Counted from the first letter of the stretch, positions 7,082-64,000 are shown. The stretch is 64,000 bases of DNA from Bacillota bacterium (GCA_017397935.1 JAFQHN010000015.1:2746-66745), one strand, 5' to 3'. Numbers and translations: made by a program. The notes: generated by a model from the letters alone, not told the origin.

Positions 7082-7339
7082 TTATTTTGCACGCTTTGCC
7101 CAGATACCGGTAGTTTTCAGCAGCTGTTTAACGGTCTCGGACGGTTCAGCACCGGTTTGCAGCCATTTCAGAGCCTTTTCCTCGTTGATGCAAATTTCGG
7201 TGGGTTCAGCAATCGGATTGTAGTAACCGATTTCTTCGATAAAACGACCGTCACGAGGGCTGCGGGAGTCAGCTACGATAACACGGTAGAAAGGAGCCTT
7301 CTTGGCGCCCATGCGACGCAGACGAATTTTAGTTGCCAT
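7082..7339 (-). CDS. rpsP: 30S ribosomal protein S16
   Basis: [35 protein letters not shown]… canonical S16; AGGAGG RBS. Confidence 0.95.
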
Positions 7340-36493: not shown

Positions 36494-36569
36494 TGGAGCT
36501 GGAGACGTGACTTGAACACGCGACCTGCTGATTACGAATCAGCTGCTCTACCAACTGAGCTACACCAGC
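36494..36569 (-). tRNA. tRNA-Thr (anticodon CGU)
   Basis: Minus strand GCTGGTGTAGCTCAGTTGGTAGAGCAGCTGATTCGTAATCAGCAGGTCGCGTGTTCAAGTCACGTCTCCAGCTCCA; anticodon loop TTCGTAA; one U-U mismatch in acceptor stem. Confidence 0.8.
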
Positions 36570-40691: not shown

Positions 40692-40726
40692 TCACACAAT
40701 GATATTGTATACATTTTTAATCACAC

Positions 40727-41389
40727 TTACCAAGGCATAACAACAGCACCCCAGGCATTACGCTGAAAAGGAGGAAGCGGCGTCAGATGATTCAGCATTT
40801 TTACCTGCTCATCAGAGCCAAAATACAACAACACCGTTTGGTCCGGTGCAGATAAGAAAAATGACCCCGAACGTTTTGCTGCATGAATGACCGTATTAAG
40901 GTGTGAGATAAGCCATGGGTAAAACCAGCCATCACTTTTATAAATCATATGCTCCTCATGCTTTCCCCAAATATCATAGCTAATACCAACACCATTTTTG
41001 ATTTTCTTGTGCTTTACATCCCAGTTGATTTGCAAGTTTTGCAGCGGAAAACCACCGTAGGCAATACGCGACAAATCAGCCAACAGCTCTTCATATCGTT
41101 CTGCACATTCAAAATCCTCAGTATCAATAAGCAAAAGAAGATCTGAACATGGCTGCCATTCATCCAATATTTTCCTTTTGCCACCAAGGGCTGTAAGGAT
41201 AACGTTATACGGGTTAGCCTCAACATATTCCCGGCCAAATTCCCGGCAAAGATAGTCAACGAAGTCCGGGAAATTAGGATGAATACCATGCTTTTCGGCC
41301 AGCACACGCAGTTGTTCCTCAACAGAAATTGGGCCTGCCGGCGCTGCTGGATATGCCGGCCGCTGGGAAATATATCCATAATCCCACAT
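40727..41389 (-). CDS. Hypothetical protein (220 aa), no recognisable domain
   Basis: Clean ORF between priA and ilvD; Trp/Tyr-rich, no TM; cannot assign family by inspection. Confidence 0.5.
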   Translation of the reverse strand: MWDYGYISQRPAYPAAPAGPISVEEQLRVLAEKHGIHPNFPDFVDYLCREFGREYVEANPYNVILTALGGKRKILDEWQPCSDLLLLIDTEDFECAERYEELLADLSRIAYGGFPLQNLQINWDVKHKKIKNGVGISYDIWGKHEEHMIYKSDGWFYPWLISHLNTVIHAAKRSGSFFLSAPDQTVLLYFGSDEQVKMLNHLTPLPPFQRNAWGAVVMPW

Positions 41390-41404
41390 AGCGATTCTCC
41401 TCTA

Positions 41405-44795: not shown

Positions 44796-46412
44796 TTATT
44801 CTGTCATGTAAGCGTCTGCATAAGCAGCGCTGTTCAGCCAACGATAAATAATTGCCGCACCCTCGCCGCGTGTCATCAGCTGCTCCGGTGCAAAAACAGC
44901 ATCAGCCACACCGCGCATGATTTGTTTATCACGCAGGTTGGCAATAGCCGGTACCGCCCAGGCATACTGCTCCGGGCCCACATCATCATAAGACGAAACC
45001 GCAGTTATATCCTCGCCGCCGATAATTCGGCTGAGCATAACCGCTGCTTCGGCACGGCTGATTTTGGCATTGGGGTGCACGCCGCCGTCGGGATACCCCT
45101 TCAACAAGCCGCGGGAAACGCCCTTGATGATTTCATTGTACGCCCAATGGTCAGGCGATAAGTCATTATAAGCAATACTGCCGGTCTGGCCGTCACTCAG
45201 AGGCTGAGAAATATCCAGCACACGGTTCAGCAAGGTCACCATCTCGGCTCTGGTCAGGTATTCATTAACACCGAAATATTTATCGGATACCCCCTGCACC
45301 AGCCGCGGTGTTTGATAATACAGGTGAAGCACCTCATCGGCCGCCCAATGATTTACCACATCCGCAAAAGGCGAAATCAATGAGTACAAAGCCAACTCCG
45401 AGCTGTAAGAAATTATCGGCGCCGGTCCCTGATAGCTGTATTTAATGCTGTTGTTGTTCGCCCAATAATCACCGGTATAAATCAGCCGGTTATCCTCGTC
45501 TATGTGGGCAAAACGGCTCCAATCCGCCAGTCCGTCAGCATTTTTATCCTCGCCGGAGGTAGGGTCAGCCACCACCCAGCCAACGCTGTCAATATAAAAC
45601 ATCGCCCAGCTATGCCGGATTTTATCCGCATTGATATGGCCGGCAGGGCTTAGATAAGTGCTGTCAGTCTGGGCGTCCTGCCCGTAAAGATAACCGCTGC
45701 AAACCCGCGCCGGTATCCCCAAAGAACGCAGGCAGGCAACATACAGGTTGGCGTAATCCTCGCAGTTGCCGCGCTGTGTATAATAAGCGGTGGCAGCAGA
45801 ATGACTTGCCCGTTCATCGTTGTCATAAGTCATGTAACTGCTTACCGCCGCAAAAAGCAGGCGTGCCTTCAAATAATTGTTGGCAGTTGATGAGGTAGCC
45901 TGGGCGGCAAAATCAACAATCTCCGGCATATCCGAGTTTATATCCTCGGTCGGCTGCAAATACTGCGCCAAATCCTCCGTCGGCTCTCCCCCTGCCATAC
46001 CGGAGACATCATAGGTAATGCAGAAGTTATTTATCGCAGTTTTATGTATAAGCTGTATTTTCTCGCCCACATCCAGCCGCTTGATAAAATAATGTGCAGT
46101 TCGGCGGCCGGACTCATCCTCGGTGATCTTCTGCGGCTGTGGAGAAAACTCCTCATCCAGATGATCCTGCCAAACCGTACTTTCATTAGCTGCCAGCGGT
46201 ACCGCCACATTGATGTTATAAATGGGGTTTAAGCTGCGGTTTTGCAAATTTACGGTGTTTAGAACCGTGTAAATGTCACCGTTATCTCTGGTTATTGCTT
46301 CGTGCCGCTTCAACACATCATCAGCCAATGCCATTCCCGCCCCCAAAGCAATAAACAGCACAGCCAGCAGCCACATCGCCAACCAACGCTTTCCGGTTAC
46401 AGCATTTCTCAT
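44796..46412 (-). CDS. Secreted transglutaminase-like cysteine-protease-fold protein with three C-terminal S-layer-homology (SLH) domains
   Basis: Signal peptide; transglutaminase core Cys (…GNCEDYANLYVACLRSLGIP…); three SLH-like repeats in last ~170 aa. Confidence 0.75.
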   Translation of the reverse strand: MRNAVTGKRWLAMWLLAVLFIALGAGMALADDVLKRHEAITRDNGDIYTVLNTVNLQNRSLNPIYNINVAVPLAANESTVWQDHLDEEFSPQPQKITEDESGRRTAHYFIKRLDVGEKIQLIHKTAINNFCITYDVSGMAGGEPTEDLAQYLQPTEDINSDMPEIVDFAAQATSSTANNYLKARLLFAAVSSYMTYDNDERASHSAATAYYTQRGNCEDYANLYVACLRSLGIPARVCSGYLYGQDAQTDSTYLSPAGHINADKIRHSWAMFYIDSVGWVVADPTSGEDKNADGLADWSRFAHIDEDNRLIYTGDYWANNNSIKYSYQGPAPIISYSSELALYSLISPFADVVNHWAADEVLHLYYQTPRLVQGVSDKYFGVNEYLTRAEMVTLLNRVLDISQPLSDGQTGSIAYNDLSPDHWAYNEIIKGVSRGLLKGYPDGGVHPNAKISRAEAAVMLSRIIGGEDITAVSSYDDVGPEQYAWAVPAIANLRDKQIMRGVADAVFAPEQLMTRGEGAAIIYRWLNSAAYADAYMTE

Positions 46413-46550
46413 AAAATTCCTTCTCTCACTACAATTTGCCACAAATATACATCACAAAAACATCAATATACACTTTGTTTTATTATAACATATCTTAATA
46501 AGAAATTCAATCTCTCCAAGGCGTTCTGCCGTTTATCGTTTTTATGGCCT

Positions 46551-46600
46551 TGTAGTAAAAATAACCTCCCTTCGTAGAAATTACGGAGAGAGGTTATAAT
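46551..46600 (-). terminator. Terminator downstream of 46639-47049 gene (long imperfect hairpin plus T-run on minus strand)
   Basis: ataacctcccttcgtagaaattacggagagaggttat; minus strand followed by TTTTTAC. Confidence 0.5.
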
Positions 46601-46638
46601 CAAGCCGGCAGCAGTCCGGAAAATTGGAGTATACCGGC

Positions 46639-47049
46639 TTACTCAGCAGGCCGTTTCCATTCGCCGGTATCAATGTTTTTTTGCAAAACAAGTGCATATC
46701 CACCATTTGGACGATTGAAATATATCTCTGTATCATTTTCGCCCAAGTCCAATTCATATTCATATTTTGCCCCGAACGAACTATTGAGACCACCAAAGGT
46801 AGAATAAAATGTAAGGTAATGGGGCTTCACTCCGCCACCTTTATCATCAAAGCCTCGAATATATCCCATAGAGGTCGGAATAGATGTTGTAAATGTCAGC
46901 TTTGTGCCATCCTCTGAAACAGAATAGTCAACCAAAACCACATCTGTTCTTTCGACAAAACCTGTTCCAATTAAAAAGAACATAATCAAAGACGCAATCA
47001 GTACAGCTATAATTGAAATCCAAGTTACAACCGTGCGTTTTGTCTTCAT
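46639..47049 (-). CDS. Hypothetical membrane-anchored secreted protein (136 aa)
   Basis: N-terminal TM/signal anchor, start MKTKRT after AAAGGAG RBS; lower GC than neighbours. Confidence 0.5.
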   Translation of the reverse strand: MKTKRTVVTWISIIAVLIASLIMFFLIGTGFVERTDVVLVDYSVSEDGTKLTFTTSIPTSMGYIRGFDDKGGGVKPHYLTFYSTFGGLNSSFGAKYEYELDLGENDTEIYFNRPNGGYALVLQKNIDTGEWKRPAE

Positions 47050-47249
47050 GGTCCGGCACTCCTTTCTGTTCTTAAATATCACTTCTTATTTATAGTTGCA
47101 TTTATTGTATCATATTTTTCTTCCTACTTCAACTCATGCAGTAAAAAGCCGCATTATTTACCCAAAAACAGGCTGGATTTTACTGCCAAAATGTGTTATG
47201 CTGTTATCTGATTAAAAAATGTAAACTATAAATACAGGAGCATAACCCC

Positions 47250-47474
47250 ATGAGCAGAAAAAATAAAGAGAAACGCCTGCGGCAAGCTGCCGGCACCCCC
47301 AAAAAAACCAATAATAAGCATAAGGAAGAAACCGCCTGGGATGTCATCAAAGATCTTTTTACCAACCCCTTTGAGTATCGCAGTAAAAATCCTTATCTCG
47401 GAAAAATTTTGGGTGGTTTGTGTTTGTTTGCGGCACTTTGCCTGCTGTTTTACATCACCGGTCATAATATGTAG
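47250..47474 (+). CDS. Small basic protein with C-terminal TM helix (74 aa), hypothetical
   Basis: ORF with AGGAG RBS; Lys-rich N-terminus, hydrophobic C-terminus. Confidence 0.4.
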   Translation: MSRKNKEKRLRQAAGTPKKTNNKHKEETAWDVIKDLFTNPFEYRSKNPYLGKILGGLCLFAALCLLFYITGHNM

Positions 47475-47560
47475 AAAATAAATTTTCTCCCCTTACATAC
47501 CAACAGCGAGACGCTTTCGGCAATCCACCAAAGCTTCCCGCTGTTTTTTCTTTTTATTTC

Positions 47561-49438
47561 TTATTCCAGCTCAAACAGACCGTTATAAAGCTGATAATAA
47601 CGCCCCTTCTGCCGCAGCAAATCGGCGTGGTCGCCGCGCTCCACCACCCGGCCGTTTTCCAGCACCAAAATAGCGTTGGCATTACGCACGGTGGATAATC
47701 GGTGGGCAATCACAAACACAGTGCGGTTATCCATCAGGCGGTCCATCGCCTTTTCAATCAACTGCTCTGTTCTGGTGTCCACCGAACTGGTCGCCTCATC
47801 CAACACAATCACCGGCGTATCGGCCAACATCGCACGGGCAATCGTCAAAAGCTGCCGCTGACCCTGGGATAAATTGCCGCCGTTTCCGCTGATAACAGTA
47901 TCATAACCCTGCGGCAGGTGGCGGATAAACCCATCAGCATTGGCCAGCTTGGCCGCCGCCTCCACCTCGGCATCGGTGGCATTTAAGCGGCCGTAACGGA
48001 TATTCTCCCTGACAGTACCGCTGAACAGGTGGCTGTCTTGCAGGACAAATGCCATAGAACGGCGTAAATCCGTCTTGCTTATCTGCTTAATATCAATGCC
48101 GTCATAAATAATCTGCCCATTTTCCACCTCATAAAAGCGGTTGATGAGATTGGTAATGGTGGTCTTGCCGGACCCCGTACTGCCCACCAGCGCAATTTTC
48201 TGGCCGGGCTTGGCATAAAAACTGACATTATGCAGCACGGTTTTCTCCGGCAGGTAACCAAAGCTGACATTCTCCAACCGCACATCGCCTTTAACCTCGG
48301 TGTAGATAACGCCGTCAGCAGCCTGCCGCTTCCACAGCCAATATTTGCCGTTTGCCGCTTCCTGCCAGCCGTCGGCGGTTTTTTCCGCCCTCACCAGCTT
48401 AACCTCGCCCTCATCATTCTCCGGCATTTCATCCAACACGGCAAAAATACGCTCCGCACCGGCCAGGGCCAGCAGCACACCGTTAAATTGCTGCGAAATC
48501 TGGCTTATCGGTTGGCCAAACTGCCGTGTAAGCTGCAAAAATGAGGCCAAAGACCCCAAATCCAGCAGGCCGCCAACCCCCAAAATGGCGCCCAGCACCG
48601 CCGTCAGCGCATAATTAACATAAGACAAATTCATCATCACCGGCATCATAATATTGGCAAAGGTATTGGCATTGGTGGCCGCCGCACACAAATCATCATT
48701 GATGGTGGTAAAATCACGGGCCGCCTGCTGTTCACGGCCAAAAACCCGTACCACCTTCTGTCCCTCAATCATCTCCTCCAAATAGCCGTTTACCCTGCCG
48801 ATGGCCTGCTGCTGTTTTTTGAAGTAAAAACCGCTTTTTCGGCCAATCAGCTTGACAGATAGGAACATTACCCCCAGCATCACCACAATCAGCAGAGTAA
48901 GCAGCGGGCTTAACACCAGCATGGCACCAAACACGCCGATTACCGTCATCGAGCAGGAAAGCAGCGTGGGCAAACCCATACCCAGCGCATCGTGCAATGC
49001 GTCGGTATCGCTGGTATAGCGGCTCATCAACTCTCCGTGGGGGTGTTTATCAAAGTAAGACAAGGGCAGCTTTTCCATGTGGGCAAACATATCCTTGCGG
49101 ATAACCGCCAGCGTTTTGCTGGATATCACCACCATCAGCCTGTTATAAATATAAGTTGCGGCCACGCCCACCAGATAAATCACCGCCATCACCGCTATCA
49201 ATGAGATAAAACCGGAGAGGTCGGGGTTTTGCTGCCCGATAAACGGCACCACATAATCATTAAACAAGGGTTTAAGAAACAAACTGCCTGCTACCGCCGC
49301 CGCAGAGGATAACATAATCATCGGCAGCACAATCAACAGCAGCATTTTTTGCGGCGCCAGATATGCCAACAGGCGTTTCAGAGTTTGGCGCACATTTTGT
49401 GGGCGGGCAGGCATTCGTCCCATACCGTGCTTAGGCAT
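47561..49438 (-). CDS. ABC exporter fused permease/ATPase subunit (heterodimer partner B)
   Basis: Six-TM region plus NBD with Walker A GSTGSGKTT, signature LSQGQRQ; start MPKHG after AAGGGAGG RBS, overlapping upstream stop (ATGCCTAA). Confidence 0.85.
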   Translation of the reverse strand: MPKHGMGRMPARPQNVRQTLKRLLAYLAPQKMLLLIVLPMIMLSSAAAVAGSLFLKPLFNDYVVPFIGQQNPDLSGFISLIAVMAVIYLVGVAATYIYNRLMVVISSKTLAVIRKDMFAHMEKLPLSYFDKHPHGELMSRYTSDTDALHDALGMGLPTLLSCSMTVIGVFGAMLVLSPLLTLLIVVMLGVMFLSVKLIGRKSGFYFKKQQQAIGRVNGYLEEMIEGQKVVRVFGREQQAARDFTTINDDLCAAATNANTFANIMMPVMMNLSYVNYALTAVLGAILGVGGLLDLGSLASFLQLTRQFGQPISQISQQFNGVLLALAGAERIFAVLDEMPENDEGEVKLVRAEKTADGWQEAANGKYWLWKRQAADGVIYTEVKGDVRLENVSFGYLPEKTVLHNVSFYAKPGQKIALVGSTGSGKTTITNLINRFYEVENGQIIYDGIDIKQISKTDLRRSMAFVLQDSHLFSGTVRENIRYGRLNATDAEVEAAAKLANADGFIRHLPQGYDTVISGNGGNLSQGQRQLLTIARAMLADTPVIVLDEATSSVDTRTEQLIEKAMDRLMDNRTVFVIAHRLSTVRNANAILVLENGRVVERGDHADLLRQKGRYYQLYNGLFELE

Positions 49439-51209
49439 CAGCCTCGCCTCCCTTCTGCTGAGAATAATAAATCTCACGGTAAATTGCACAGCTCTCCAAC
49501 AGCTCGTCATGCTTGCCGCAATCTATCAGCCGGCCGTCATCCAGCACCGCAATTTTGTCGGCATCCATCACCGAGGTTATACGCTGGGCCACAATAATGG
49601 TGGTGATGCCGTGCAAATCCTCACGCAGAGTTTTGCGGATAGCCTTATCCGTGGCGGTATCCACCGCGCTGGTGCTGTCATCCAGAATAATAATGTCCGG
49701 CCTTTTCAGCAAGGCACGGGCAATACAAAGCCGCTGGCGTTGACCGCCGGAAAGGTTGACACCACCCTGCCCCAGCACCGTATCATAGCCTTGGGGGAGG
49801 GTGCTGATGAAGTCATGGGCGGCGGCAGCACGGCAGGCAGCTTCAATTTCCGCCTGAGTGGCATTGGCATTACCCCAACGCAGGTTATCTGCCACCGTAC
49901 CGGAGAATAACAGGTTTTTTTGCAGAACCATCGCCACTTTGTTGCGCAAATCGGCCAGATTTTGTTCTCTTACATCCACTCCGCCCACCAGCACACGGCC
50001 GGAGGTCACATCATAAAGCCTGGGGATCAGCTGCACCAGCGTGGATTTTCCGCTGCCGGTACCGCCGATAATGCCAACTGTTTCCCCGACCTTTATGCTC
50101 AGGTTAACATTTGACAGAACATCGGCCCGCTTTTCCTGCCCGTTTTGGCTGTTATCATAAGCAAAACATACATCCTCAAAAACAATGTCGGCCTTGCCCG
50201 TTTCCTTGGTGTTTTGCGGTTCGGTCAAATCAATTTCCTCATCCAGCACCTCGCCGATACGGTTGATAGAAGCCTTGGACAAAATAAGGTTGACCGAAAT
50301 CATCGCAATCATCATTACCGACATTAAAATCTGCGAGATATAGCTGATAAAGCTCATCAAATCACCCACCAGCATTTCTCCGGCAATAATCGTGTTGCCG
50401 CCAAACCAGGCCACCGCCAGCATACAGGTATACATCCCCAGCTGCATGATCGGCATGGTCGTGGCCATCAGGCTCTCGGCACGGAAGGCAGCCTGCTGCA
50501 TCTCATCCACACTGTTGTTGAACAGGTCGGTTTCGTAATCACCGCGCACAAAGGCCTTAACCACACGGATAGCCGTCAAATTCTCCTGCGTGCGGGTATT
50601 CAGCGAGTCATATTTGCTCATAAGCTGACGAAAACGCGGAAAAGCCATAATAAAAATGCCGAAAATAACCACGCTGAGCAGCGGTAATGCCACCAGCAAA
50701 ATCATGGCCAGATTGCTGTTGATATAAAAAGCCATGGCCGCACCGCACAGCAGCATTAACGGCGCACGGAACAGCATTCTCAGCCCCATCATCAGCGCCA
50801 TCTGGGTGTTGGTGACATCGGTGGTCAGTCTGGTTATCAATGATGCGGTACTGAATTTGTCCAGCGAGCGAAAGGAAAACTGCTGAATTTTATCAAACAG
50901 CGCCGCCCGCAGGTTTTTGGCAAAGCCCACACCCGCCACCGATGATGAACGCCCGGCCAGCACGCCCAAAGCCAGCGAGCAAAGCGCCATCAGCAGCATG
51001 AGCGCACCAAGCTTACAAATATACGGAACATCCTGCTGAGCCAGGCCCACATTGATGATTGAGGCCATAACCAGCGGTATACCAATATCCAGGGCAACCT
51101 CTCCCACAATGAACAACGGCGTTAATACCGCAGGCAGCCTGTACCCCTGCATACAGGCCGCAACTTTTTTGGATACCAATATCAACACTCCCCCAGGCAA
51201 TATACACAA
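49431..51209 (-). CDS. ABC exporter fused permease/ATPase subunit (heterodimer partner A)
   Basis: TM domain plus NBD (GGTGSGKST, LSGGQRQ); true start uncertain (weak RBS at annotated ATG; internal TTG/ATG alternatives). Confidence 0.8.
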   Translation of the reverse strand: MCILPGGVLILVSKKVAACMQGYRLPAVLTPLFIVGEVALDIGIPLVMASIINVGLAQQDVPYICKLGALMLLMALCSLALGVLAGRSSSVAGVGFAKNLRAALFDKIQQFSFRSLDKFSTASLITRLTTDVTNTQMALMMGLRMLFRAPLMLLCGAAMAFYINSNLAMILLVALPLLSVVIFGIFIMAFPRFRQLMSKYDSLNTRTQENLTAIRVVKAFVRGDYETDLFNNSVDEMQQAAFRAESLMATTMPIMQLGMYTCMLAVAWFGGNTIIAGEMLVGDLMSFISYISQILMSVMMIAMISVNLILSKASINRIGEVLDEEIDLTEPQNTKETGKADIVFEDVCFAYDNSQNGQEKRADVLSNVNLSIKVGETVGIIGGTGSGKSTLVQLIPRLYDVTSGRVLVGGVDVREQNLADLRNKVAMVLQKNLLFSGTVADNLRWGNANATQAEIEAACRAAAAHDFISTLPQGYDTVLGQGGVNLSGGQRQRLCIARALLKRPDIIILDDSTSAVDTATDKAIRKTLREDLHGITTIIVAQRITSVMDADKIAVLDDGRLIDCGKHDELLESCAIYREIYYSQQKGGEADA

Positions 51210-54753: not shown

Positions 54754-54842
54754 GGAGCGGTATCGAAGTGGTCATAACGAGCCTGACTCGAAATCAGGTG
54801 TACCTCACGGTACCGTGGGTTCGAATCCCACCCGCTCCGCCA
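54754..54842 (+). tRNA. tRNA-Ser (anticodon CGA), long variable arm, encoded CCA
   Basis: GGAGCGG…anticodon loop CTCGAAA…long variable arm GTACCTCACGGTACCGT…GTTCGAATC…CCGCTCCGCCA. Confidence 0.85.
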
Positions 54843-54846
54843 TGGT

Positions 54847-54888
54847 AGCGTGATGATATTACTGTCAGTAGTGTCATCACGCTTTTTC
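54847..54888 (+). terminator. Terminator after tRNA-Ser (10-bp stem AGCGTGATGA/TCATCACGCT plus TTTTT)
   Basis: Read directly. Confidence 0.65.
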
Positions 54889-54991
54889 ATGCGGTTTTTC
54901 AGGATCAAAAAAAGGGTTACTCTGATGACTGACCAATGCCCTCTATAAGCTATATCAGAGATTTGATGCTAACTATATAAGGAGAAGGCTT

Positions 54992-55384
54992 ATGAAAAGA
55001 GTATGTGAATTTTTGAAAAATGCAGAGGTATATTATTTGGCAACGGTTGAGGGAGATCAGCCGAGAGTGCGTCCGTTAAGAACGGTAAACGAGTTCGATG
55101 GAAAACTCTACATACAGACCGGCAAGGTTAAGCCAACGAGCCGGCAGCTTGCAGCTAACCCCAAAGCTGAGATTTGTGCATTTAAGGACGGTGCGTGGAT
55201 TAGGATCGCTTGCGAGCTTATTGAAGATGACCGCTTTGAAGCAAAAAAATCCATGCTTGATGCGTATCCCAATCTTCGAAATATGTATGATGAAAACGAT
55301 GGTAATACGCAGGTGTTTTATATGAAAAATGCTGCCGCAACTATCAATTCCTTTGGCGGCGAACCTGTTGTTATTGAGTTTTAA
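54992..55384 (+). CDS. Pyridoxamine-5'-phosphate-oxidase-like FMN-binding split-barrel protein (130 aa)
   Basis: …YLATVEGDQPRVRPL… pattern typical of PNPOx-like family; AAGGAGAAGG RBS; low-GC codon usage. Confidence 0.55.
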   Translation: MKRVCEFLKNAEVYYLATVEGDQPRVRPLRTVNEFDGKLYIQTGKVKPTSRQLAANPKAEICAFKDGAWIRIACELIEDDRFEAKKSMLDAYPNLRNMYDENDGNTQVFYMKNAAATINSFGGEPVVIEF

Positions 55385-55467
55385 TGAATATACATAAAAA
55401 ATTAAAGCCGAATTTTCGTGGTTTTCAGAATTCTAAAAAAGAAAAATATAAAATTTATCCAAAATTA

Positions 55468-55496
55468 TTGACTTTTTTCTTAATAAGTGATATAAC
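55468..55496 (+). promoter_or_regulatory. Promoter for T-box leader (TTGACT-17 bp-TATAAC)
   Basis: Read directly upstream of structured leader. Confidence 0.45.
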
Positions 55497-55519
55497 ATAC
55501 AACATAAATTGAATATCAT

Positions 55520-55801
55520 CTGACTAAATGCGGTGAGCAGAACTAAGTAAGCTTGGAAAGAGCTTGAAGAGAGTTGCCGGATGGTGCAAGGCAATGGCGA
55601 TGACCATGACGAATTCCTTCTGTTAGCAGTGCGCTGAACAAGAGAAATCTTAAGTAGGAGGCAACGGGAGTTCCCGTTACAGAACTAGGGTATGTTAGTA
55701 CCTGATAAGGTTGCTGTCGTGAGGTAGTGACAAACTGAGGTGGTACCACGGAAATGTTTTTTCGTCCTCTGTATCTTGTTTAAGATGCAGAGGATTTTTT
55801 T
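55520..55801 (+). promoter_or_regulatory. T-box-like riboswitch (tRNA-sensing leader) ending in intrinsic terminator
   Basis: AGAGAG stem-I-like element at 55566-55573; T-box-like box AAACUGAGGUGGUACCACGG at 55731-55750 (consensus AAUUAGGGUGGNACCGCGG); terminator CCUCUG…CAGAGG plus U7 at 55765-55801 overlapping the box. Confidence 0.6.
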
Positions 55802-55954
55802 ATCCGCAAATAAAGCGAAAGTATTAAATGTTAGGCTTATACATAGGTATGCTGTTCAAAAAAGAATTCCCGAAAAATTAACATGACTGCGTAAGCACTT
55901 AATTATCAGAGATTTATGCTCTGCGGAGCATGAATAAATAAATTATTAAAGGAG

Positions 55955-56893
55955 TTGTACACTATGAAAAAAATGTTATCCATCGTACTTGCACTTACCC
56001 TTTGCGTAAGCACATGTCTCTCGCTCTCAGGCTGCGGGGGCAAAAATTACAGCTATCAGGTAGGCATTTGTCAGCTTATGGTCCATGATTCACTGGATCA
56101 GGCAACACAAGGTTTTCAGGATGGTTTGAAAGCCGCTCTTGAAAAAGAAGGCAAAACAGTAGAGTTTGATACACAGGTTGCAGGCGAAGCAAACCTTTGC
56201 ACAACTGTTATCAACACATTCACAGCAAAGAATGTTGACCTTATTATGGCTAACGCAACCCCTGCACTTTTGGCTGCTGCTAATGCAACAACAAAGATTC
56301 CTGTGCTCGGTACTTCTGTAACAGACTATGCTGATACATTCTCCGGTAATATTCCTGAAAATGTAACAGGTACATCTGATGCGGTTCCTTTCGATGAACA
56401 GGCAAAAATGATGATTGAAAGCCTCAACCTTGTTGAAGGCGATAAAGTTGGCGTTATTTACTGCACAAACGAATCCAACTCTCTTATCCAGTATAACGCT
56501 GTAAAAGAACTCTTTGAAGCAGAAGGTATCGTAGTAACAGCATACACATTCTCTGAAACAACAGAGCTTCAAGCACTCGTTACAAAGGCTGCATCTGAAT
56601 CAAAGGCAATCTATGTTCCTTCTGATAACACAGTTGCACAGAACGATACAGTAGTTGGAACAATCTGCACAGATAAGAATGTTCCTGTATTCACAAGTTA
56701 TGGCGGTGGAATCTGCTATGCAAGCCTTGCAATCGACTACTATCAGCTTGGCCACAGAACAGGTGAACAGGCTGCCGAAATCCTTCTTGGCAACAAGAAA
56801 CCTTCTGACATTAAGGTAGAAACCCTTACACCTTCTGTTATTTACAACGAAGAACTTTGCGCGCAACTTGGAATCGAGGTTCCGCAGAACTAA
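55955..56893 (+). CDS. ABC transporter substrate-binding lipoprotein, PF04392 (ABC_sub_bind) family (TrpX-like, putative aromatic amino acid/tryptophan uptake)
   Basis: Lipoprotein signal (…LSGCGG), family resemblance; T-box leader upstream. Confidence 0.7.
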   Translation: MYTMKKMLSIVLALTLCVSTCLSLSGCGGKNYSYQVGICQLMVHDSLDQATQGFQDGLKAALEKEGKTVEFDTQVAGEANLCTTVINTFTAKNVDLIMANATPALLAAANATTKIPVLGTSVTDYADTFSGNIPENVTGTSDAVPFDEQAKMMIESLNLVEGDKVGVIYCTNESNSLIQYNAVKELFEAEGIVVTAYTFSETTELQALVTKAASESKAIYVPSDNTVAQNDTVVGTICTDKNVPVFTSYGGGICYASLAIDYYQLGHRTGEQAAEILLGNKKPSDIKVETLTPSVIYNEELCAQLGIEVPQN

Positions 56894-56917
56894 TCAAAAA
56901 ATACGAGGTACTGCAAA

Positions 56918-57838
56918 ATGGCTTTTTTGAATGTTTTACCCGGAGCAATCGCGGAAGGGCTGATATGGGGACTTATGGCAATCGGTGTCTATATCTCCTA
57001 TAAGATTTTAGATATTGCAGACCTATCGGTAGATGGCTCTATTTGCACAGGTGCGTGTGTATGCGTTGTGATGCTTGCCGCAGGAAATCCGATTTGGCTT
57101 TGTATGCTCGCGTCGGTTATTGCCGGTGCTTTGGCAGGTGTATTGACGGGACTGTTTCATACTGCACTTGGAATACCGGCTATTCTTGCAGGTATCCTGA
57201 CTCAGCTTATTCTCTATTCGGTAAATCTGTCTATACTTGGCGGTAAATCCTTAATCGCTATTGATATTCGTTCAACGAACCTTATTATGCACATGAGCGA
57301 TAACCCAATGGCGATTGTATCGGCAGGATTGATTATTGTGGCAACTATTATTGGGCTTTGGTTGTTCTTCTATACAGAGACAGGATTGACCATTAAATCG
57401 ACAGGTGATAATCCGCATATGAGCCGCGCACAAGGTGTCAATGTTGATCTTAACAAGGTTATCGGTCTTGCAATATCAAACGGTATTGTAGCTTTGGCAG
57501 GCTCTCTTTTAGCTCAGTACAAAGGTTCTGCCAATATCAATGACGGCAGAGGTGCTATCGTAATCGGACTTGCAGCTATATTTATCGGTCTTTCGGTATC
57601 ACTTAAAATCAAACCGAATTTTGTTTGCAGTTTGATAGGCGTAATCGGCGGCGGTATTGTGTATTACATAATCTATAACTTTGTAATTCTTTTGGGACTT
57701 AAAACCGATTATCTTAAAATGCTGTCGGCAATTATAGTTGCTTTATTCATTGCTGTGCCATATCTAAAAACAAAATATTTCACAAAGCAAAAGCCTATAC
57801 CGATAGTGCAAAATAATGGAGGTGATGAAGATGCTTAA
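56918..57838 (+). CDS. ABC transporter permease (TrpY-like)
   Basis: Polytopic membrane protein with branched-chain-type permease fold; operon position. Confidence 0.75.
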   Translation: MAFLNVLPGAIAEGLIWGLMAIGVYISYKILDIADLSVDGSICTGACVCVVMLAAGNPIWLCMLASVIAGALAGVLTGLFHTALGIPAILAGILTQLILYSVNLSILGGKSLIAIDIRSTNLIMHMSDNPMAIVSAGLIIVATIIGLWLFFYTETGLTIKSTGDNPHMSRAQGVNVDLNKVIGLAISNGIVALAGSLLAQYKGSANINDGRGAIVIGLAAIFIGLSVSLKIKPNFVCSLIGVIGGGIVYYIIYNFVILLGLKTDYLKMLSAIIVALFIAVPYLKTKYFTKQKPIPIVQNNGGDEDA

Positions 57839-58628
57839 AATTAAAAACCTCCAAAAAACATTTAATCCCGGAACAGTTAATGCAAAAACTGCTTTGGCAG
57901 GTCTTAATTTAACTCTTAACAACGGAGATTTTGTTACCGTTATAGGCGGTAACGGTGCAGGTAAATCCACTATGCTCAATGCTATATCAGGTGTGTGGAA
58001 GCCTGACTACGGCACAATCGAAATTGACGGTGTGGATGTAACCAATATGCCCGAATACAAAAGAGCAAAGTTTTTGGGCAGAGTTTTTCAGGACCCGATG
58101 ATGGGAACTGCACCTGATATGGAAATTGCCGAGAATTTGGGAATTGCCAGAAGACGTGGCACAAAGCGTAGACTTCGCTGGGGTATCAGAAAGGCGGAGC
58201 GGCAGGAATATAAGGAACTGCTTGCTACATTAGAGCTTGGTCTGGAAAACAGACTTTCAAGCAAGGTCGGTCTTTTGTCCGGCGGACAAAGACAGGCGGT
58301 AACGCTTCTTATGGCAACGCTTAACCGTCCGAAGCTTCTTCTCCTGGATGAACACACTGCTGCACTTGATCCGAAAACTGCGGCAAAGGTGCTTGAAATA
58401 ACTAATAAAATAGTTACGGAAAATAACCTGACAACACTTATGATTACTCATAATATGCATGATGCAATCGAATACGGCAACCGCCTCATTATGATGCACG
58501 AAGGCAAAGTGATTGTTGACGTCTCCGGCGAAGAAAAGAAAAAACTGACAATTTCTCAGCTTCTTGAATTGTTTGAAAAAGCAAGCGGAAGCGAATTCGC
58601 AAACGATAAGGTTATGTTATCTAAATAA
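57831..58628 (+). CDS. ABC transporter ATP-binding protein (TrpZ-like)
   Basis: Walker A GGNGAGKST, signature LSGGQRQ, Walker B LLLDEHTAALD; start MLKIKN after GGAGGTG RBS. Confidence 0.85.
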   Translation: MLKIKNLQKTFNPGTVNAKTALAGLNLTLNNGDFVTVIGGNGAGKSTMLNAISGVWKPDYGTIEIDGVDVTNMPEYKRAKFLGRVFQDPMMGTAPDMEIAENLGIARRRGTKRRLRWGIRKAERQEYKELLATLELGLENRLSSKVGLLSGGQRQAVTLLMATLNRPKLLLLDEHTAALDPKTAAKVLEITNKIVTENNLTTLMITHNMHDAIEYGNRLIMMHEGKVIVDVSGEEKKKLTISQLLELFEKASGSEFANDKVMLSK

Positions 58629-58636
58629 GAATTATT

Positions 58637-58677
58637 GTTAAGTGGCTGCCAAATGACAGCCACTTAACTTGTTTTAT
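58637..58677 (+). terminator. Strong terminator after ABC operon (12-bp perfect stem GTTAAGTGGCTG/CAGCCACTTAAC plus TTGTTTTAT)
   Basis: Read directly. Confidence 0.7.
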
Positions 58678-58907
58678 AAAAATACATTCCCAAATTCCTG
58701 CATAAAATATGATATACAGTAAACCAGACAAGAATTATCAAAAGGAAAATTAAAAATTTGGGGAGAAAAATTGTATAACAAAATAGACCGGCAAGCAGAA
58801 AAATTTTTTGTCGCCCGGTGAAAAAGATTAAAAGTTAAATTTAATTATCCGAATTTAATTGTTCTTCATTTAGCAAAATATGAAATATGGAAGCTGAGGT
58901 GTGAATA

Positions 58908-59966
58908 ATGCCATTACAAATAGTAAGAAATGACATCACAAAAATGAAAGTAGACGCCATCGTTAACGCTGCCAACACATCGCTTCTCGGCGGCGGCGGT
59001 GTTGACGGCTGTATCCACCGTGCCGCCGGCCCGTCTCTTCTTACCGAGTGCAAAATGCTTGGCGGCTGTGAAACCGGCAGTGCCAAAATTACCGGTGCAG
59101 GAAATCTGCCTTGTAAACATGTTATTCATGCCGTGGGGCCCCGGTGGCTGGGAGGCGGTCACGGAGAGCGAGAACAGCTCATTTCCTGTTATCGGACGAG
59201 TCTGGCGCTGGCCGGGGATAAGGAATGTGAGACAGTTGCTTTTCCGCTGTTTTCTTCCGGTATCTACGGCTACCCCAAGGATAAAGCGTTGAGAATAGCC
59301 ATAGATACGATAAGTGAGTTTTTGCTTGATAACGATATGACCGTCTATATTGTTATCTTTGATAAAACAGCATACCAAATCAGCGAAAAACTGTTTGCAG
59401 ATATTACCGAATACATTGATGACAACTATGTGAATGAACATACTGGTACCTGCCCTAACCGTCTGTGCAGAAATGACAGAATGTACGAAGAAGACATTAT
59501 TTACAGGGCAAACATCGAAGTAGCTATTGATGATGATACCGATGACTTGATTCCGGTTTGTGCATCGGCAGCAAAAGCGGAATACAAATCAAATAAGGAC
59601 TCATTGGAATATATCCTTAAACAGATTGATGAGAGTTTTTCTGAAATGCTGCTGCGCAAGATTGACGAGTGCGGTATTACAGATGCTGAATGCTACAAGA
59701 AAGCAAACATTGACCGCAAGCTGTTCTCCAAAATCCGCAGTGATAAGCTGTATAAGCCGAGCAAACCTACTGTTATTGCCTTTGCTATCGCCCTTAAACT
59801 GTCTTTGGAGGAAACGAAGGATATGCTGATGAAGGCCGGTTTTGCACTCTCCCACTCCAATAAATTCGACATAATTATTGAGTATTTTATCGAAAACGAA
59901 AATTACAATGTCTTTGAAATAAATGAGGCCCTGTTTGCCTTTGACCAAAGTTTGCTGGGAGCATAA
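58908..59966 (+). CDS. Macro-domain (MacroD/YmdB-like ADP-ribose-binding/hydrolase) protein fused to a C-terminal extension containing an XRE-like helix-turn-helix (352 aa)
   Basis: N-terminal ~175 aa: …[27 protein letters not shown]…VIHAVGPRW…[13 protein letters not shown]…; C-terminal region …[19 protein letters not shown]…[28 protein letters not shown] resembles Cro/C1-type HTH. Confidence 0.7.
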
Positions 59967-60010
59967 AACTGTTGATATTCTCACAATAAAAGGATTGATT
60001 AAGCCAACCG

Positions 60011-60034
60011 GATTTGTCGCCTGCCATGCGACCA
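60011..60034 (+). repeat. Direct repeat copy 1 (ATTTGTCGCCTGCCATGCGACCA), 80 bp upstream of the HD-domain gene
   Basis: Shares 19/23 positions, including 14-bp perfect core CTGCCATGCGACCA, with 61438-61460. Confidence 0.6.
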
Positions 60035-60113
60035 AAACAAATATCTCTGACTGTATAATGATAGTGTCAGTTAAATCGGGCAGATGTCAGCAAGCTATCA
60101 GGAGGGATAAATT

Positions 60114-61433
60114 ATGAATCAACAATTTACTGCTGAGGATATTCTTAATGCGAAACAAATTTATTTCTATAACAACGAAACACTTTACATCATAGACCAT
60201 GATGATGAGGCATACGGATACAGCAAAGGATGTTCCGGCTGGTATCATAAAGAAAACTTCTGGGATTATTTTGAGTCTGAGCTGATGATGACCTACTTTA
60301 CCCACATCACCAAAGAAGAAGCCGTTCAGCTTTATCTTGGCTGGGCAGATGATTACAACGCTGATAATTGCCGGCTTGACAAAGCAATTATTTTTGCTGT
60401 GGAACATCATGCCGGCCAGTTCCGTAAAAGTACGGTACTCCCCTACATCACCCACCCTATTGAAACAATGCAGATTCTTTATTCCATGAGAGCAGACATC
60501 AACCTGCTGATAGCCGGTGTGCTTCATGACACGATTGAGGACACCGAAGCAACAGAGCAAGACATTCGGGAACTGTTTGGAGATGATGTTGCAGGGCTTG
60601 TTACTGCCCACAGCGAGGACAAAAGCAAAACATGGCAGGAACGCAAAACCCACGCCATTGAAGAACTGGCGAAGGCTGACAAGCGTTTGAAGATGCTGAT
60701 TATGGCTGATAAAGTATCTAACCTTAGAAACATGGTATCCGATTACTCTCTGGTTGGTGATGAGCTATGGAACAGATTTAACGCACCGGTCAACAAGCAA
60801 TCCCGGTATTACAGCGACATTCAGGATGCGCTCTGTGATATGCAAAAATATCCGGAATGTGCTGCCGTGTATTGGGAAATGGTTGGTCTGTATAAAGACT
60901 TGTTCGTAAGATACTATCTCGATAAAAGAACAAATACGCTGTACCGGTTCTGCTTAGGTATTGCTATCTATGCTCTGCAAAAAGGAACTCCCCAATGGAC
61001 GGAGTACCAAGAAAAGCATATTCCTGAAAATGCAGAACCCATAGAGCGCTTAGCAGCTGAACACATGGAAGATGATTGGAAATCTGCTTTTCAGCATCAA
61101 CATGAAATGGATATTTCCAATGCGTCATATTCTGTATATGGCTCAATAAGACGCTGCATTGACTTTCGCATTTCCGATGGAAAGCTGACAGTCGCTTGTG
61201 AGGACTTCGGGCCTGAATGTCAAAATATGACCGGCAATAATATGTACGAGTTCTTTTATCAGTTGGATGAGGACAATACCCTTCGCTTGTTAACCGGACT
61301 CCGCATCGAATACGGACTTGAAACCGATTTGATTGATTTGCTTAAAGAGGCTTTTGGCTCGGATGACGGAACAACCCTGTTCACAAATTTCTGCAAGAAA
61401 AATCGCATTAAATACAAGTTTTTCTCAATGTAA
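60114..61433 (+). CDS. 439-aa protein with central RelA/SpoT-type HD domain (small alarmone hydrolase-like) flanked by uncharacterised N- and C-terminal regions
   Basis: HD motif set …AVEHHAGQFRKS…PYITHPIE…AGVLHDTIEDT… as in SpoT/Mesh1 hydrolase domains; no synthetase domain; ~220-aa C-terminal part unassignable. Confidence 0.65.
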   Translation: MNQQFTAEDILNAKQIYFYNNETLYIIDHDDEAYGYSKGCSGWYHKENFWDYFESELMMTYFTHITKEEAVQLYLGWADDYNADNCRLDKAIIFAVEHHAGQFRKSTVLPYITHPIETMQILYSMRADINLLIAGVLHDTIEDTEATEQDIRELFGDDVAGLVTAHSEDKSKTWQERKTHAIEELAKADKRLKMLIMADKVSNLRNMVSDYSLVGDELWNRFNAPVNKQSRYYSDIQDALCDMQKYPECAAVYWEMVGLYKDLFVRYYLDKRTNTLYRFCLGIAIYALQKGTPQWTEYQEKHIPENAEPIERLAAEHMEDDWKSAFQHQHEMDISNASYSVYGSIRRCIDFRISDGKLTVACEDFGPECQNMTGNNMYEFFYQLDEDNTLRLLTGLRIEYGLETDLIDLLKEAFGSDDGTTLFTNFCKKNRIKYKFFSM

Positions 61434-61437
61434 TATA

Positions 61438-61460
61438 AATTTAGTGTCTGCCATGCGACC
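61438..61460 (+). repeat. Direct repeat copy 2 (ATTTAGTGTCTGCCATGCGACCA), 5 bp after the HD-domain gene stop
   Basis: See copy 1. Confidence 0.6.
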
Positions 61461-61543
61461 ATGCAAAGTGCAATTTAAGATACAATATGACTGTAAGGTA
61501 AAAACCGAGCAGTCATATTTCTATTTGCGTTGGTATATAAAAA

Positions 61544-61580
61544 GGAGCAAGGCATATTTCAGTCTTGCTCCTATTATAAT
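61544..61580 (+). terminator. Terminator after HD-domain gene (GGAGCAAG…CTTGCTCC plus U-rich tail)
   Basis: 8-bp perfect stem, 12-nt loop. Confidence 0.5.
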
Positions 61581-61877
61581 TTATATGCTGCTTAGTTTAA
61601 CAAATCAGCAATTTGATTACTTGTCTCTTGCCAGGCAGCCAACAATGGCCAAAATTAAACCAATAAGCGCGCTGCCTGCTGCAAACAGATCATTTGTCGA
61701 TAGAGCGATACCGAGTAAACTTACACATACACCAACAATACTTATTTTAATCCCCTTCATACAATCGTACTACTTCGGCCCATTTAAGAAGCAACTCTTA
61801 AACTGTCTGCATAGTTTGGTTTATTTGTCCAAATCAGTAAACAAATCTGCCTGGTTATAAAATTTTTTATGCGATTT

Positions 61878-62951
61878 TTACAGCCATGCCTGGCCTTCGG
61901 TTAATTTTTGAGTAAAAATACGGTTTTCATCCTTGACATCTTTGGCCTGATGATACTTAAACAGAAACTCCCCATTGGCCAGCTCACCGATAATTTCAAT
62001 CTTGCCGGTATAGTGCGACATCGCATAGCGAATACATTTGCCCTGCCCGTTTTGCAGAGCCTTGGCACCGTCCACAATTTTGTAACCCTCGGCCAGCGGT
62101 ACCTGAAAATGATTAAGAACACCGCGCACCGGACGGCATTGAAAAACATAATACGGCACCACACCGCAGGCTGTAAGCTTGTCCAGCAGCTCGCCCAGCA
62201 CCTCGGCCGAATCATTGATACCGCGCAACAGCACGGTTTGATTTTTAACCAGCAGACCGCAATTCATCAACGCCTTTACCGCTTTGATAGCCTCCGGCGT
62301 AACTTCTCTGGGGTGGTTAAATTGGGTGATAATGTAAAGCTGTTTCTTTTGACAATATTCACGCAGCATATCCAACAGTTCGGCATCATCGTAAATGCGC
62401 TGCGGATAAACCACCGGCACACGGGTGCCAAAACGAATCAAATCCAACTGCTGCATATCCGCAAAATGGTCAAGATATTGACGGATAATGGCATTACTGT
62501 TGGCAAAAGAATCGCCGCCGGTAATCAAAATATTGTTGATCTCCGGGTGTTCCTGCACATAGACAGTCATCAATTCCAGACGCTTGGCGGTTTCTTCATC
62601 GGTGATACCCACCATACGCTTGCGAAAACAATGCCGACAATACATATAGCAGGCATTGGAGGATAAAATGAGTGCAGTTTGTCTGTATTTGTGCTGCATA
62701 CCGGGCACAACGGTGTTATCACCCTCGCCGCTGGTATCCACATCGCCGCCCTCCTCAATCTCCCACGCCGAGGGAATGGAAAGCTTGCGTATTGGGTCAT
62801 CCGGGTCAGTTGGGTCAATCAATGATAGATAATAATCATTGGTCAGCATGGGGTATTGTTCGGCAATTTTGTCCATTACCTCTGCTTCATCACCATGCAG
62901 CTGCAAATAATCTTTAACTTGATGTCCGTTAGCATAAAATTTAACAGTCAT
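61878..62951 (-). CDS. KamA-family radical SAM aminomutase (lysine 2,3-aminomutase-like; EpmB/KamA type not resolved)
   Basis: CxxxCxxC cluster (CYMYCRHC) plus PLP-binding-region resemblance; GGGAGGA RBS. Confidence 0.75.
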   Translation of the reverse strand: MTVKFYANGHQVKDYLQLHGDEAEVMDKIAEQYPMLTNDYYLSLIDPTDPDDPIRKLSIPSAWEIEEGGDVDTSGEGDNTVVPGMQHKYRQTALILSSNACYMYCRHCFRKRMVGITDEETAKRLELMTVYVQEHPEINNILITGGDSFANSNAIIRQYLDHFADMQQLDLIRFGTRVPVVYPQRIYDDAELLDMLREYCQKKQLYIITQFNHPREVTPEAIKAVKALMNCGLLVKNQTVLLRGINDSAEVLGELLDKLTACGVVPYYVFQCRPVRGVLNHFQVPLAEGYKIVDGAKALQNGQGKCIRYAMSHYTGKIEIIGELANGEFLFKYHQAKDVKDENRIFTQKLTEGQAWL

Positions 62952-63063
62952 TATTATCCTCCCTTCAAATTCAGAATGGTTAATTATATTAAAAGATGTA
63001 ATTAGCCCTTACATCCTATTACAAATAACATATAAATATTAACTGCTGATTAACAGCCATAAC

Positions 63064-63621
63064 CTATTCCACCGGGTTGCCATGGCCGTCAAACAGCGGC
63101 AGCTTACCCAGCACAATATAATCGGGATTATCGGCAGCAGCGCCCTCGGCCAAAATAGCCATCCGGGCCACCACAATGCCCCCTGCCTGCTCCACCAGAT
63201 TACCCACAGCTTTAATTGAGCCGCCGGTGGAGATTACATCATCCAGAATAACCACGCGTTTGCCCTTAATTTTGGCGGCATCATCACCGTCCATATACAG
63301 TTTTTGGTCACCAATGGTGGTAATGGAACGGTCCTGGGTTTCCAGCACATTTTTCATATACAGTTTGTGGCCTTTGCGCACCAAAATATACTCGTTGCGG
63401 CCACTTTGGCGTGCCATCTCATGCACCAGCGGGATAGCCTTGGCCTCGGGTGCCACCATATAATCAAACTCGGGCAATTTCTCCACCAGCGCGGCAGCGC
63501 AGGCACAGGTCAGCTCCACATCACCGAAAATCACAAAAGCGGCAATCATGGCATCATCATTCAGCGGGCACAGCGGCAAATCACGGGTTACACCGGCCAC
63601 CGTCATCGGATATGTATTCAT
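63064..63621 (-). CDS. Type I phosphoribosyltransferase (adenine/purine PRTase-like)
   Basis: PRPP-binding motif VVILDDVISTGGS; 185 aa. Confidence 0.65.
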   Translation of the reverse strand: MNTYPMTVAGVTRDLPLCPLNDDAMIAAFVIFGDVELTCACAAALVEKLPEFDYMVAPEAKAIPLVHEMARQSGRNEYILVRKGHKLYMKNVLETQDRSITTIGDQKLYMDGDDAAKIKGKRVVILDDVISTGGSIKAVGNLVEQAGGIVVARMAILAEGAAADNPDYIVLGKLPLFDGHGNPVE

Positions 63622-63648
63622 AGATTCTCCTTAAATATATCTTAGCAA

Positions 63649-64000
63649 TTATTTAATCACTTTCAGCGAGGCATACTTCTGGATAAGCACTTTAATGCCC
63701 TGACCGGGGAAGGCAATAGAAAGAGCCGTTTCCTCGCCGGTTCCCTCTACCTTAACCACCATGCCCTGGCCAAACTTGGCGTGCTGCACCTTATCACCAA
63801 CATTGATAAGCTGGCGTCCGCTGTTCGGCTGCGGCTCAAAGCTGCGCTTGGGGCGGCTGACAAACAGAGATGTCGGCCTGGGGGCAGCCTCCTGTTTAAC
63901 CTCCGGTCTGCGATAGCTGAGGGTATGGGCGTTGATCAGCTCCACCGGCACCTCACCGATAAAACGGCTGGGCGGCAGGCTGACATATTGACCAAACAGA
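63649..64000 (-). CDS. C-terminal end of a UvrD/PcrA-type DNA helicase (gene continues beyond window end)
   Basis: Reading frame open to the window edge (…LFGQYVSLPPSRFIGEVP…); terminal Tudor-like motif …GDKVQHAKFGQGMVVKVEG…IAFPGQGIKVLIQKYASL… typical of PcrA/UvrD C-termini. Confidence 0.6.
   Translation of the reverse strand, partial: LFGQYVSLPPSRFIGEVPVELINAHTLSYRRPEVKQEAAPRPTSLFVSRPKRSFEPQPNSGRQLINVGDKVQHAKFGQGMVVKVEGTGEETALSIAFPGQGIKVLIQKYASLKVIK

Follow-up and report, generated by a model that had tools for sequence, protein, structure and literature searches.

The tRNA-Ser(CGA) gene in a 64,000-nt stretch of a Bacillota genome (GCA_017397935.1, JAFQHN010000015.1:2746-66745; hereafter the window) is followed by about 7 kb of AT-richer DNA, which extends to a gene for a KamA-family radical SAM protein. 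The host is an uncultured spore-forming Bacillota species that is known from metagenomes only. The six genes of this island are divided between two modules: module A, with a PNPOx-like gene and an ATP-binding cassette (ABC) importer operon behind a T-box leader, and module B, with a macrodomain gene and an HD-domain gene. A preliminary description, made from the sequence alone, had listed these genes and suggested horizontal acquisition. All of them were identified (Pfam, Rfam), and we think that the island was probably acquired horizontally, as two modules.

The left anchor of the island, tRNA-Ser(CGA) (54754-54842, + strand; ARAGORN, Rfam tRNA 59 bits), is preceded by a promoter-like sequence (TTGCAT-17-TACAAT) that is a candidate for its own promoter. 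Directly 3' of the tRNA is a terminator hairpin supplied by the island (54847-54883, + strand), with a 17-pair stem followed by a T run. The right anchor is the KamA-like gene (61878-62951, - strand; NCBIfam TIGR00238, 230.5 bits, cutoff 199). To the right of the window, as seen in the contigs L081-L083, are genes for a PRTase and PcrA, a TrpR-like gene and a GerA operon. The limits of the island follow from alignment with L094 (GCA_054291485.1), a sister lineage in which the site is empty. Homology to this contig stops 1 nt past the CCA end of the tRNA and restarts at ~61855-61863, 16-24 nt beyond the stop codon of the KamA-like gene. Thus, the island comprises 54844-61862. It had been placed at 54754-61870, which gave the correct location with limits that the empty site now refines.

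Module A (~4.0 kb, 54844-58853) was delimited by blastn of L094 and L101 against the window, and occurs in the window and in L101/L102 but not in L094. Its first gene (54992-55384, + strand) encodes a 130-aa PNPOx-like FMN-binding split-barrel protein (Pfam PNPOx_N, 33.4 bits, cutoff 28.1), with ~70% nucleotide identity to Lachnospira eligens genes. This gene is a transcription unit of its own and is not linked to the transporter at other loci. Downstream are a T-box leader (55524-55772, + strand; Rfam RF00230, 104.1 bits, cutoff 93) with a terminator at 55764-55795, and genes for a TrpX-like ABC substrate-binding protein of 309 aa (55964-56893, + strand; Pfam ABC_sub_bind, 143.6 bits), an ABC permease (56918-57838, + strand; Pfam BPD_transp_2, 97.4 bits) and an ABC ATPase of 265 aa (57831-58628, + strand; Pfam ABC_tran, 101 bits). 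A two-way terminator hairpin (58637-58668) lies 3' of the ATPase gene; both terminators were located by a terminator scan. In nine homologous metagenome operons the three ABC proteins are 74-80% identical to those of the window, and the hosts have 42-63% GC. No relatives of the binding protein were found in viral contigs. In the otherwise 99.8% identical contig L082, the binding-protein gene is called as 225 aa (6457-7134), which reflects either an assembly error or a frameshift, in which case module A would be decaying in that strain.

In the T-box alignment, GAA-UUC falls in the specifier loop and GGUGGUACC in the antiterminator bulge. The specifier UUC (Phe) is found at the same position in 9/9 homologous leaders, and the UGGU bulge pairs with an A discriminator base. 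Module A most likely functions in phenylalanine uptake, predicted from these elements to be switched on by uncharged tRNA-Phe. The base that follows a T-box specifier is usually a purine; in the window (T-box positions 55610-55625) the base after UUC is C, and in the nine homologous leaders it is A. The T-box-controlled tryptophan importer TrpXYZ of S. suis has a leader with the specifier UGG and the bulge UGGC (PMC9382623). Like the streptococcal system, the operon in the window has a PF04392 binding protein, a BPD_transp_2 permease and an ATPase behind a T-box terminator/antiterminator switch. Unlike it, the window leader combines the specifier UUC with the bulge UGGU, pointing to tRNA-Phe, and the binding protein scores 183 bits against NCBIfam ABC_SBP_TrpX, well under the cutoff of 390.

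Module B (~2.7 kb, 58854-61522), delimited by blastn of L101 against the window, begins with a gene for a MacroD-type macrodomain protein (58908-59966, + strand; Pfam Macro, 148 bits, cutoff 22). Residues 1-165 form the MacroD-type domain, and the C-terminal domain of ~185 aa is all-helical. The protein scores 197 bits as an O-acetyl-ADP-ribose deacetylase in NCBIfam, just under the cutoff of 200, and its best PDB matches are MACROD2 (4e-47), MACROD1 and YmdB-type proteins. C-terminal residues 193-346 match phrog_4031 and no other family; sequence searches of Pfam, NCBIfam and PDB gave no support for the helix-turn-helix that the preliminary description had assigned to this protein. A structure predicted from the single sequence was unusable (mean predicted local distance difference test score, pLDDT, 38.6). 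Full-length homologs with 72-80% identity are encoded on IMG/VR contigs and on a Vescimonas megaplasmid, where they are part of same-strand arrays of small genes beside genes for a relaxase, MobC and a Y-family polymerase.

The second gene of module B (60114-61433, + strand) encodes a 439-aa HD_4 protein of the RelA/SpoT hydrolase type (Pfam HD_4, 66.6 bits, cutoff 27.2). The hydrolase domain is closest to Lmo0812 (PDB, 1.5e-31) and to small alarmone hydrolases, and PDB matches also include MESH1. The protein has both N- and C-terminal extensions, and 60% of it lacks a known domain. The best homologs outside the species are 78-79% identical and are found on short contigs; no relatives were found in viral contigs, and matches in plasmid and phage records are at the level of the domain only (<=42%). 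Some homologs are HD_4-Macro fusions (P0385, P0388, P0396). In contig L144 (6304-11350), within a same-strand array of small genes, a 53% identical HD homolog is encoded two genes after a 69% identical Macro homolog, beside a gene for the Anti-Pycsar protein Apyc1. The fusions and the close proximity in L144 indicate a functional link between Macro and HD, and suggest that the two proteins cooperate, possibly in countering defence systems. None of the island proteins matched the PADLOC defence-system models, and a search of module B against Rfam at a permissive threshold returned nothing. Considering their domains only, the module B proteins probably act by removing nucleotide modifications or signals of the ADP-ribose and alarmone types.

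Upstream of the HD gene is a palindrome, GTCGC-N7-GCGAC, followed ~20 nt later by TGTATAAT (60016-60058, + strand). A degenerate second copy of this palindrome/promoter/hairpin cassette was located by alignment at 61444-61530 (+ strand), with no gene behind it; the copy before the HD gene has the better palindrome and -10 box. The ~100 nt just after the HD gene have 77-80% nucleotide identity to L106, L135, L137, L138 and L140, and in related elements the matching cassette precedes a vWA gene. The parts of the cassette are GTCGC-N7-GCGACC, with an invariant stem and a variable loop, a -10-like box ~20 nt later, a second hairpin, in which two compensatory pair changes distinguish element types, and a T run. 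The palindrome is present in 16 of the 149 fetched loci, and 15 of these 16 are Macro, HD or vWA loci. The cassette, which has no Rfam match, fronts HD or vWA genes, and the elements concerned have 33-49% GC (elsewhere it was located at L144 9932 and 11355, L106 11120 and L107 7039 and in L132-L140). It resembles a combined operator and promoter for accessory genes of mobile elements.

Because Macro homologs and the ~100-nt cassette recur in relaxase-bearing elements, module B looks like a fragment of an accessory-gene array of the conjugative or mobilizable elements of gut Clostridia, from which the last gene was presumably lost. The arrays on Vescimonas fastidiosa pMM35_01 and the IMG/VR contigs L132-L140 share with the window a Macro homolog (72-80%) and the same cassette. 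In these arrays, unlike in the window, the cassette precedes a vWA gene, a relaxase and MobC are encoded, and the macro gene has no HD neighbour; the window keeps only a 2.7-kb fragment. A more specific reading, which we regard as doubtful, is that module B is a piece of an establishment or counter-defence array of conjugative elements, captured by the chromosome. In this view the Macro-HD pair would counteract toxins or defence systems that ADP-ribosylate or that produce alarmones, and the palindrome and promoter cassette would drive each gene and may provide an operator for a shared regulator. The counter-defence role is a guess from context.

Following module B is a 257-bp cassette (61523-61779, - strand) with a 47-aa hydrophobic open reading frame (ORF; 61617-61760) and a terminator hairpin (61543-61572). 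A segment of L101 (17512-17767) matches window positions 61779-61523, inverted, with 91.8% identity. The possible peptide gene of the preliminary description exists as an ORF, but whether it is coding is doubtful: L101/L102 have ATT in place of the ATG, and the alleles differ by five non-synonymous and four synonymous changes. We identified no family match for it in NCBIfam, PADLOC or PHROG. It does not show the conservation as a coding sequence that would be expected of a small hydrophobic type I toxin, and we would not annotate it as a gene. The third copy of a 23-nt repeat family (D1) that lies inside the ORF is probably due to chance. The remaining sequence to the island end (61780-61862) is a spacer found in the full-island allele only, ending where homology to both L094 and L101 restarts.

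The base composition of the region is clearly distinct. GC content is 0.410 for 54843-61877, compared to 0.496 for the remaining window, where 7-kb segments range from 0.476 to 0.536 (standard deviation 0.013) and none falls below 0.476. GC content at third codon positions (GC3) is 0.355-0.473 in the six island genes versus 0.581±0.060 in the 49 others (Mann-Whitney p 4e-6), with z values of -1.8 to -3.8 across the island genes. The dinucleotide signature distance of the island is 90.8, compared to a mean of 28.7 (standard deviation 8.5, maximum 46.9) for the other 7-kb segments. The AT-richer island noted immediately after tRNA-Ser(CGA) is therefore borne out by all three measures, and the deviation in composition is large and significant. 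The flanks, described as 55-58% GC, are in fact ~50% (0.496). GC skew is positive within the island and coincides with its + strand genes; most genes of the window are on the - strand.

The island is not uniform, as its two halves differ in GC3 and codon usage. Genes of module A (54844-58853) are strongly deviant (GC3 0.36-0.41, codon-bias z +1.7 to +4.3). Those of module B (58854-61522) have a GC3 of 0.46-0.47 and ordinary codon usage. The reported shift in codon usage thus applies to module A and not to module B. Elsewhere in the window, GC3 z values below -2.8 were found only for the genes at 40727-41389 and 46639-47082, and both are indels relative to L094. Neither encoded protein (220 and 147 aa) is matched by Pfam or PHROG, and both are absent from L094; the second gene (region 46520-47138) is present in L101, and the other low-GC3 region spans 40722-41402. 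Each of the three low-GC3 patches in the window is therefore an indel, and low third-position GC is a marker of accessory DNA in this genome.

Relatives were reached via PcrA and MetA homologs, which provide a graded series with 96-98%, 79-88% and 60-69% identity. Three alleles were identified at the site. The full allele is present in L081-L083, which are 99.8-100% identical to the window and keep both junctions (exact-protein look-ups; at least three independent assemblies). The half-filled allele is found in L101/L102 (GCA_017409985.1 and a separate metagenome), which are assigned to the same species on the basis of 97.7-99% identity. These contigs have module A only, up to window position 58853, followed by the inverted 257-bp cassette and the KamA-like gene. 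The empty site is that of L094, with ~91% nucleotide identity on both flanks and amino-acid identities of 96% for MetA and 98% for PcrA; here the order is PAP2, tRNA-Ser(CGA), a 55-bp spacer, the KamA-like gene, PRTase and PcrA. Module B (58854-61522) is an addition in the window and L081-L083 only and is lacking from both L101/L102 and L094. A scan of genome representatives with the KamA-like protein gave best matches of 65-67% in Lachnospiraceae metagenome-assembled genomes that share no neighbouring genes, and yielded no synteny information. Given three alleles (empty, half-filled and full) at one site, the two compositional halves are two separately inherited modules. The comparison of synteny shows that the region is not conserved among relatives, as L094 is empty and L101/L102 have the left half only; together with the large compositional deviation, this supports the earlier suggestion of horizontal acquisition.

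All of the compared sequences derive from metagenomes, so a misjoin of foreign low-GC DNA during assembly or binning could be considered. Two contigs of this species, L103 and L104, even end inside tRNA-Ser, just past the anticodon loop (13440). Such ends are to be expected where a sample contains a mixture of strains whose sequences diverge from the variable arm onward. An artefact is extremely improbable, because the same locus was recovered in independent assemblies: both junctions are reproduced at 99.8-100% in L081, L082 and L083, from different samples and assemblers, and the half-filled allele likewise occurs in several assemblies (L101, L102).

An explanation without acquisition is that the region is ancestral and was lost differentially, with deletion of the entire island in L094 and of module B in L101/L102, and with a low GC content due to local bias or function. 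In its favor, the direction of change is not fixed by any outgroup, the codon usage of module B is ordinary, and module A differs between strains no more than the clonal frame does. Against this, GC3 at synonymous sites is 0.36-0.41 in module A compared to 0.58, the dinucleotide signature lies 7 standard deviations out, and the left boundary coincides exactly with the end of the tRNA. The 55-bp spacer of L094 is not a subset of the island sequence, so it could not have been generated by simple deletion. In addition, the HD homologs outside the species reach no more than 78-79% and are on short contigs, and the Macro homologs are in relaxase-bearing elements. We consider differential loss unlikely.

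Comparison of the window with L101 reveals a mosaic of divergence, in which long stretches with ~0.2% differences are interrupted by patches with 2-11%. There are 8 differences in the 4011 bp of module A (0.2%), 19 in 338 bp at the 3' end of the KamA-like gene (61863-62200; 5.6%) and only 3 in 1817 bp for 62201-64000 (0.17%). The 257-bp cassette is 8% diverged. The 5.6% divergence of the 338-bp tract is near its 7-9% distance from the sister lineage. The step at ~62200 is a recombination breakpoint inside the KamA-like gene, as seen in one strain pair. So sharp a step in divergence beside the module B polymorphism indicates that alleles were exchanged by homologous recombination. A diverged donor was the source of one of the two alleles, and the other crossover lay at or to the left of 58853. 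Module A falls into the low-divergence class, and so was probably already present in the common ancestor of the strains. Recent spread of module A, as its 99.8% identity might imply, was rejected since the least-diverged stretches of the flanks are equally similar. A general pattern of hotspots that lack recognizable mobile elements and show frequent recombination in their flanking core genes has been described (PMC5635113), and the pattern here agrees with it. Elsewhere in the window, divergence from L101 rises to 5-11% at the first ABC exporter gene (47561-49510) and around it (46400-49400), compared to ~0.2-2% on either side; 46400-49400 is probably another imported recombination tract.

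The 3' flank of tRNA-Ser has been occupied by different DNA in different relatives. L098 and L146, in which MetA is 81-82% identical, keep the block from MetA to tRNA-Ser, and both have a tyrosine integrase gene directly 3' of tRNA-Ser(CGA). The L098/L099 element encodes a 394-aa integrase, an HTH_17 protein, a T5orf172 protein and a type I restriction-modification system; the L146 element encodes a 420-aa integrase with an arm-binding domain. Identity between the two integrases is only 27%. L095 lacks the tRNA and has ribosomal protein L32 after PAP2. The hairpin right after the tRNA differs in each of L094, L098 and L146 (four junction sequences were compared, including the window). As varied occupants, including two unrelated integrase elements, follow the same tRNA-Ser(CGA), its 3' flank has served repeatedly for integration and, in this lineage, also marks a break in synteny. 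On the PcrA side, relatives at 79-85% keep the order GerA-TrpR-PcrA, followed by three different neighbourhoods in three relatives. None has the PRTase gene, the KamA-like gene or the island, so PcrA-anchored synteny was rejected as a test of the island; this too is a synteny breakpoint. The KamA-like and PRTase genes (61878-63621) adjoin PcrA only in this species and L094, and the best homologs of the KamA-like protein elsewhere are at 65-67%. The entire stretch from tRNA-Ser to PcrA may be older accessory DNA.

Genes for mobility are lacking. No integrase, transposase or relaxase is encoded by the six island genes, and no type IV secretion genes were found in the island (Pfam); a relaxase was found only in two related elements, L133 and L106. 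No integrase remnant would fit into the short intergenic gaps. With up to 3 mismatches allowed, the 3'-terminal 17 or 34 nt of the tRNA do not recur elsewhere in the 64 kb, including near 61450-61870, where a partial copy had been proposed as something to look for, and a repeat search gave chance-level pairs only. Using tblastx, we detected no similarity between the island and the integrase elements of L098 and L146. The statement that no integrase or att repeat is evident therefore holds for the Pfam, tblastx, repeat and mismatch-tolerant searches. A nucleotide search of the whole island against plasmids and phages returned single-gene matches only (64-74% identity). The window does encode a 279-aa tyrosine recombinase (35494-36333, - strand; Phage_integrase and SAM_1) that adjoins tRNA-Thr(CGU) (36494-36569, - strand). 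It is Xer-like with normal GC3, and is probably a housekeeping enzyme rather than part of an island.

The island could, alternatively, be a still-mobile minimal element that excises from and integrates at tRNA-Ser, moved in trans by integrase or conjugation machinery encoded elsewhere. It lies at the 3' end of a tRNA used by two different integrases in relatives, it supplies the terminator hairpin that adjoins the tRNA, a feature shared with the integrase elements, and the tRNA differs from that of L094 at four bases only, all in the variable arm and all 3' of the anticodon. Mobility of this kind seems improbable to us in view of the missing direct repeat of the tRNA 3' end, the lack of similarity to the L098 and L146 elements and a right junction that varies between alleles, ~16-25 bp from the stop codon of the KamA-like gene.

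We therefore favor, as the probable reading, horizontally acquired accessory DNA composed of two modules, in a tRNA-Ser(CGA)/KamA hotspot, without mobility genes of its own and exchanged by recombination. The cargo modules A and B would have arrived separately. Module A is common to the examined strains of the species (the window and L081-L083, and L101/L102) and is missing from the sister lineage; the occupant may have lost its mobility genes or may never have had any. Within the species, alleles are swapped by homologous recombination through the conserved flanks, as the divergence pattern shows for the module B polymorphism. Two modes of first entry can be envisaged. An element with a tRNA-Ser-targeting integrase may have inserted, as happened in L098 and L146, and later lost its integrase and right end. 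This option fits the island-borne terminator at the tRNA end and the four tRNA differences 3' of the anticodon, but requires an internal deletion, because the integrases of the relatives are located where the PNPOx-like gene lies. Alternatively, foreign DNA may have been patched in by recombination at the hotspot.

Several observations weigh against acquisition in this form. No integrase, relaxase, transposase or att repeat points to a mechanism of insertion, and the codon usage of module B is not deviant. No outgroup keeps tRNA-Ser beside the KamA-like gene, and so the gain of module A, as opposed to loss from L094, is argued from composition and not from parsimony; gain is also supported by the L094 spacer, which is not a subset of the island. 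The near-identity of module A (0.2%) equals that of the least-diverged flanks and is silent on recent spread. Simple insertion does not explain the inverted, 8%-diverged 257-bp cassette, and every relative is a metagenome assembly.

Classical tRNA-linked genomic islands are integrase-mediated and flanked by att sites. The island resembles them in its position at a tRNA 3' end, deviant GC and codon usage and patchy distribution, and in that relatives hold real integrase elements at the same tRNA. It differs in having no integrase and no direct repeat, in its size of only 7 kb and in its two nested modules. A closer parallel is provided by hotspots of horizontal gene transfer that are free of mobile genetic elements (Oliveira, Touchon & Rocha, 2017; PMC5635113). 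As in these, the same flanks enclose different gene sets in close relatives, the window allele lacks an integrase or other mobile element, a flanking gene bears signs of recombination and a tRNA lies at the border. Unlike in that study, a handful of metagenome contigs rather than a pan-genome was compared here, and the right flank is not conserved in more distant relatives and is also a synteny breakpoint.

In summary, this is ordinary flexible-genome biology: the islet is composite, has no integrase and sits in a tRNA-linked hotspot. It provides a worked example in which a compositional anomaly noticed by eye was checked against empty, half-filled and two integrase-occupied versions of the site, and current understanding of island formation is unchanged by these findings. 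Integrase-free islets can be exchanged between strains via recombination in their flanks. The palindrome-promoter cassette and the pairing of Macro with HD are small leads on the accessory genes of conjugative elements. For this uncultured Bacillota lineage, the strain-variable traits include a phenylalanine-responsive importer, as predicted from its leader, and a macrodomain/HD pair.

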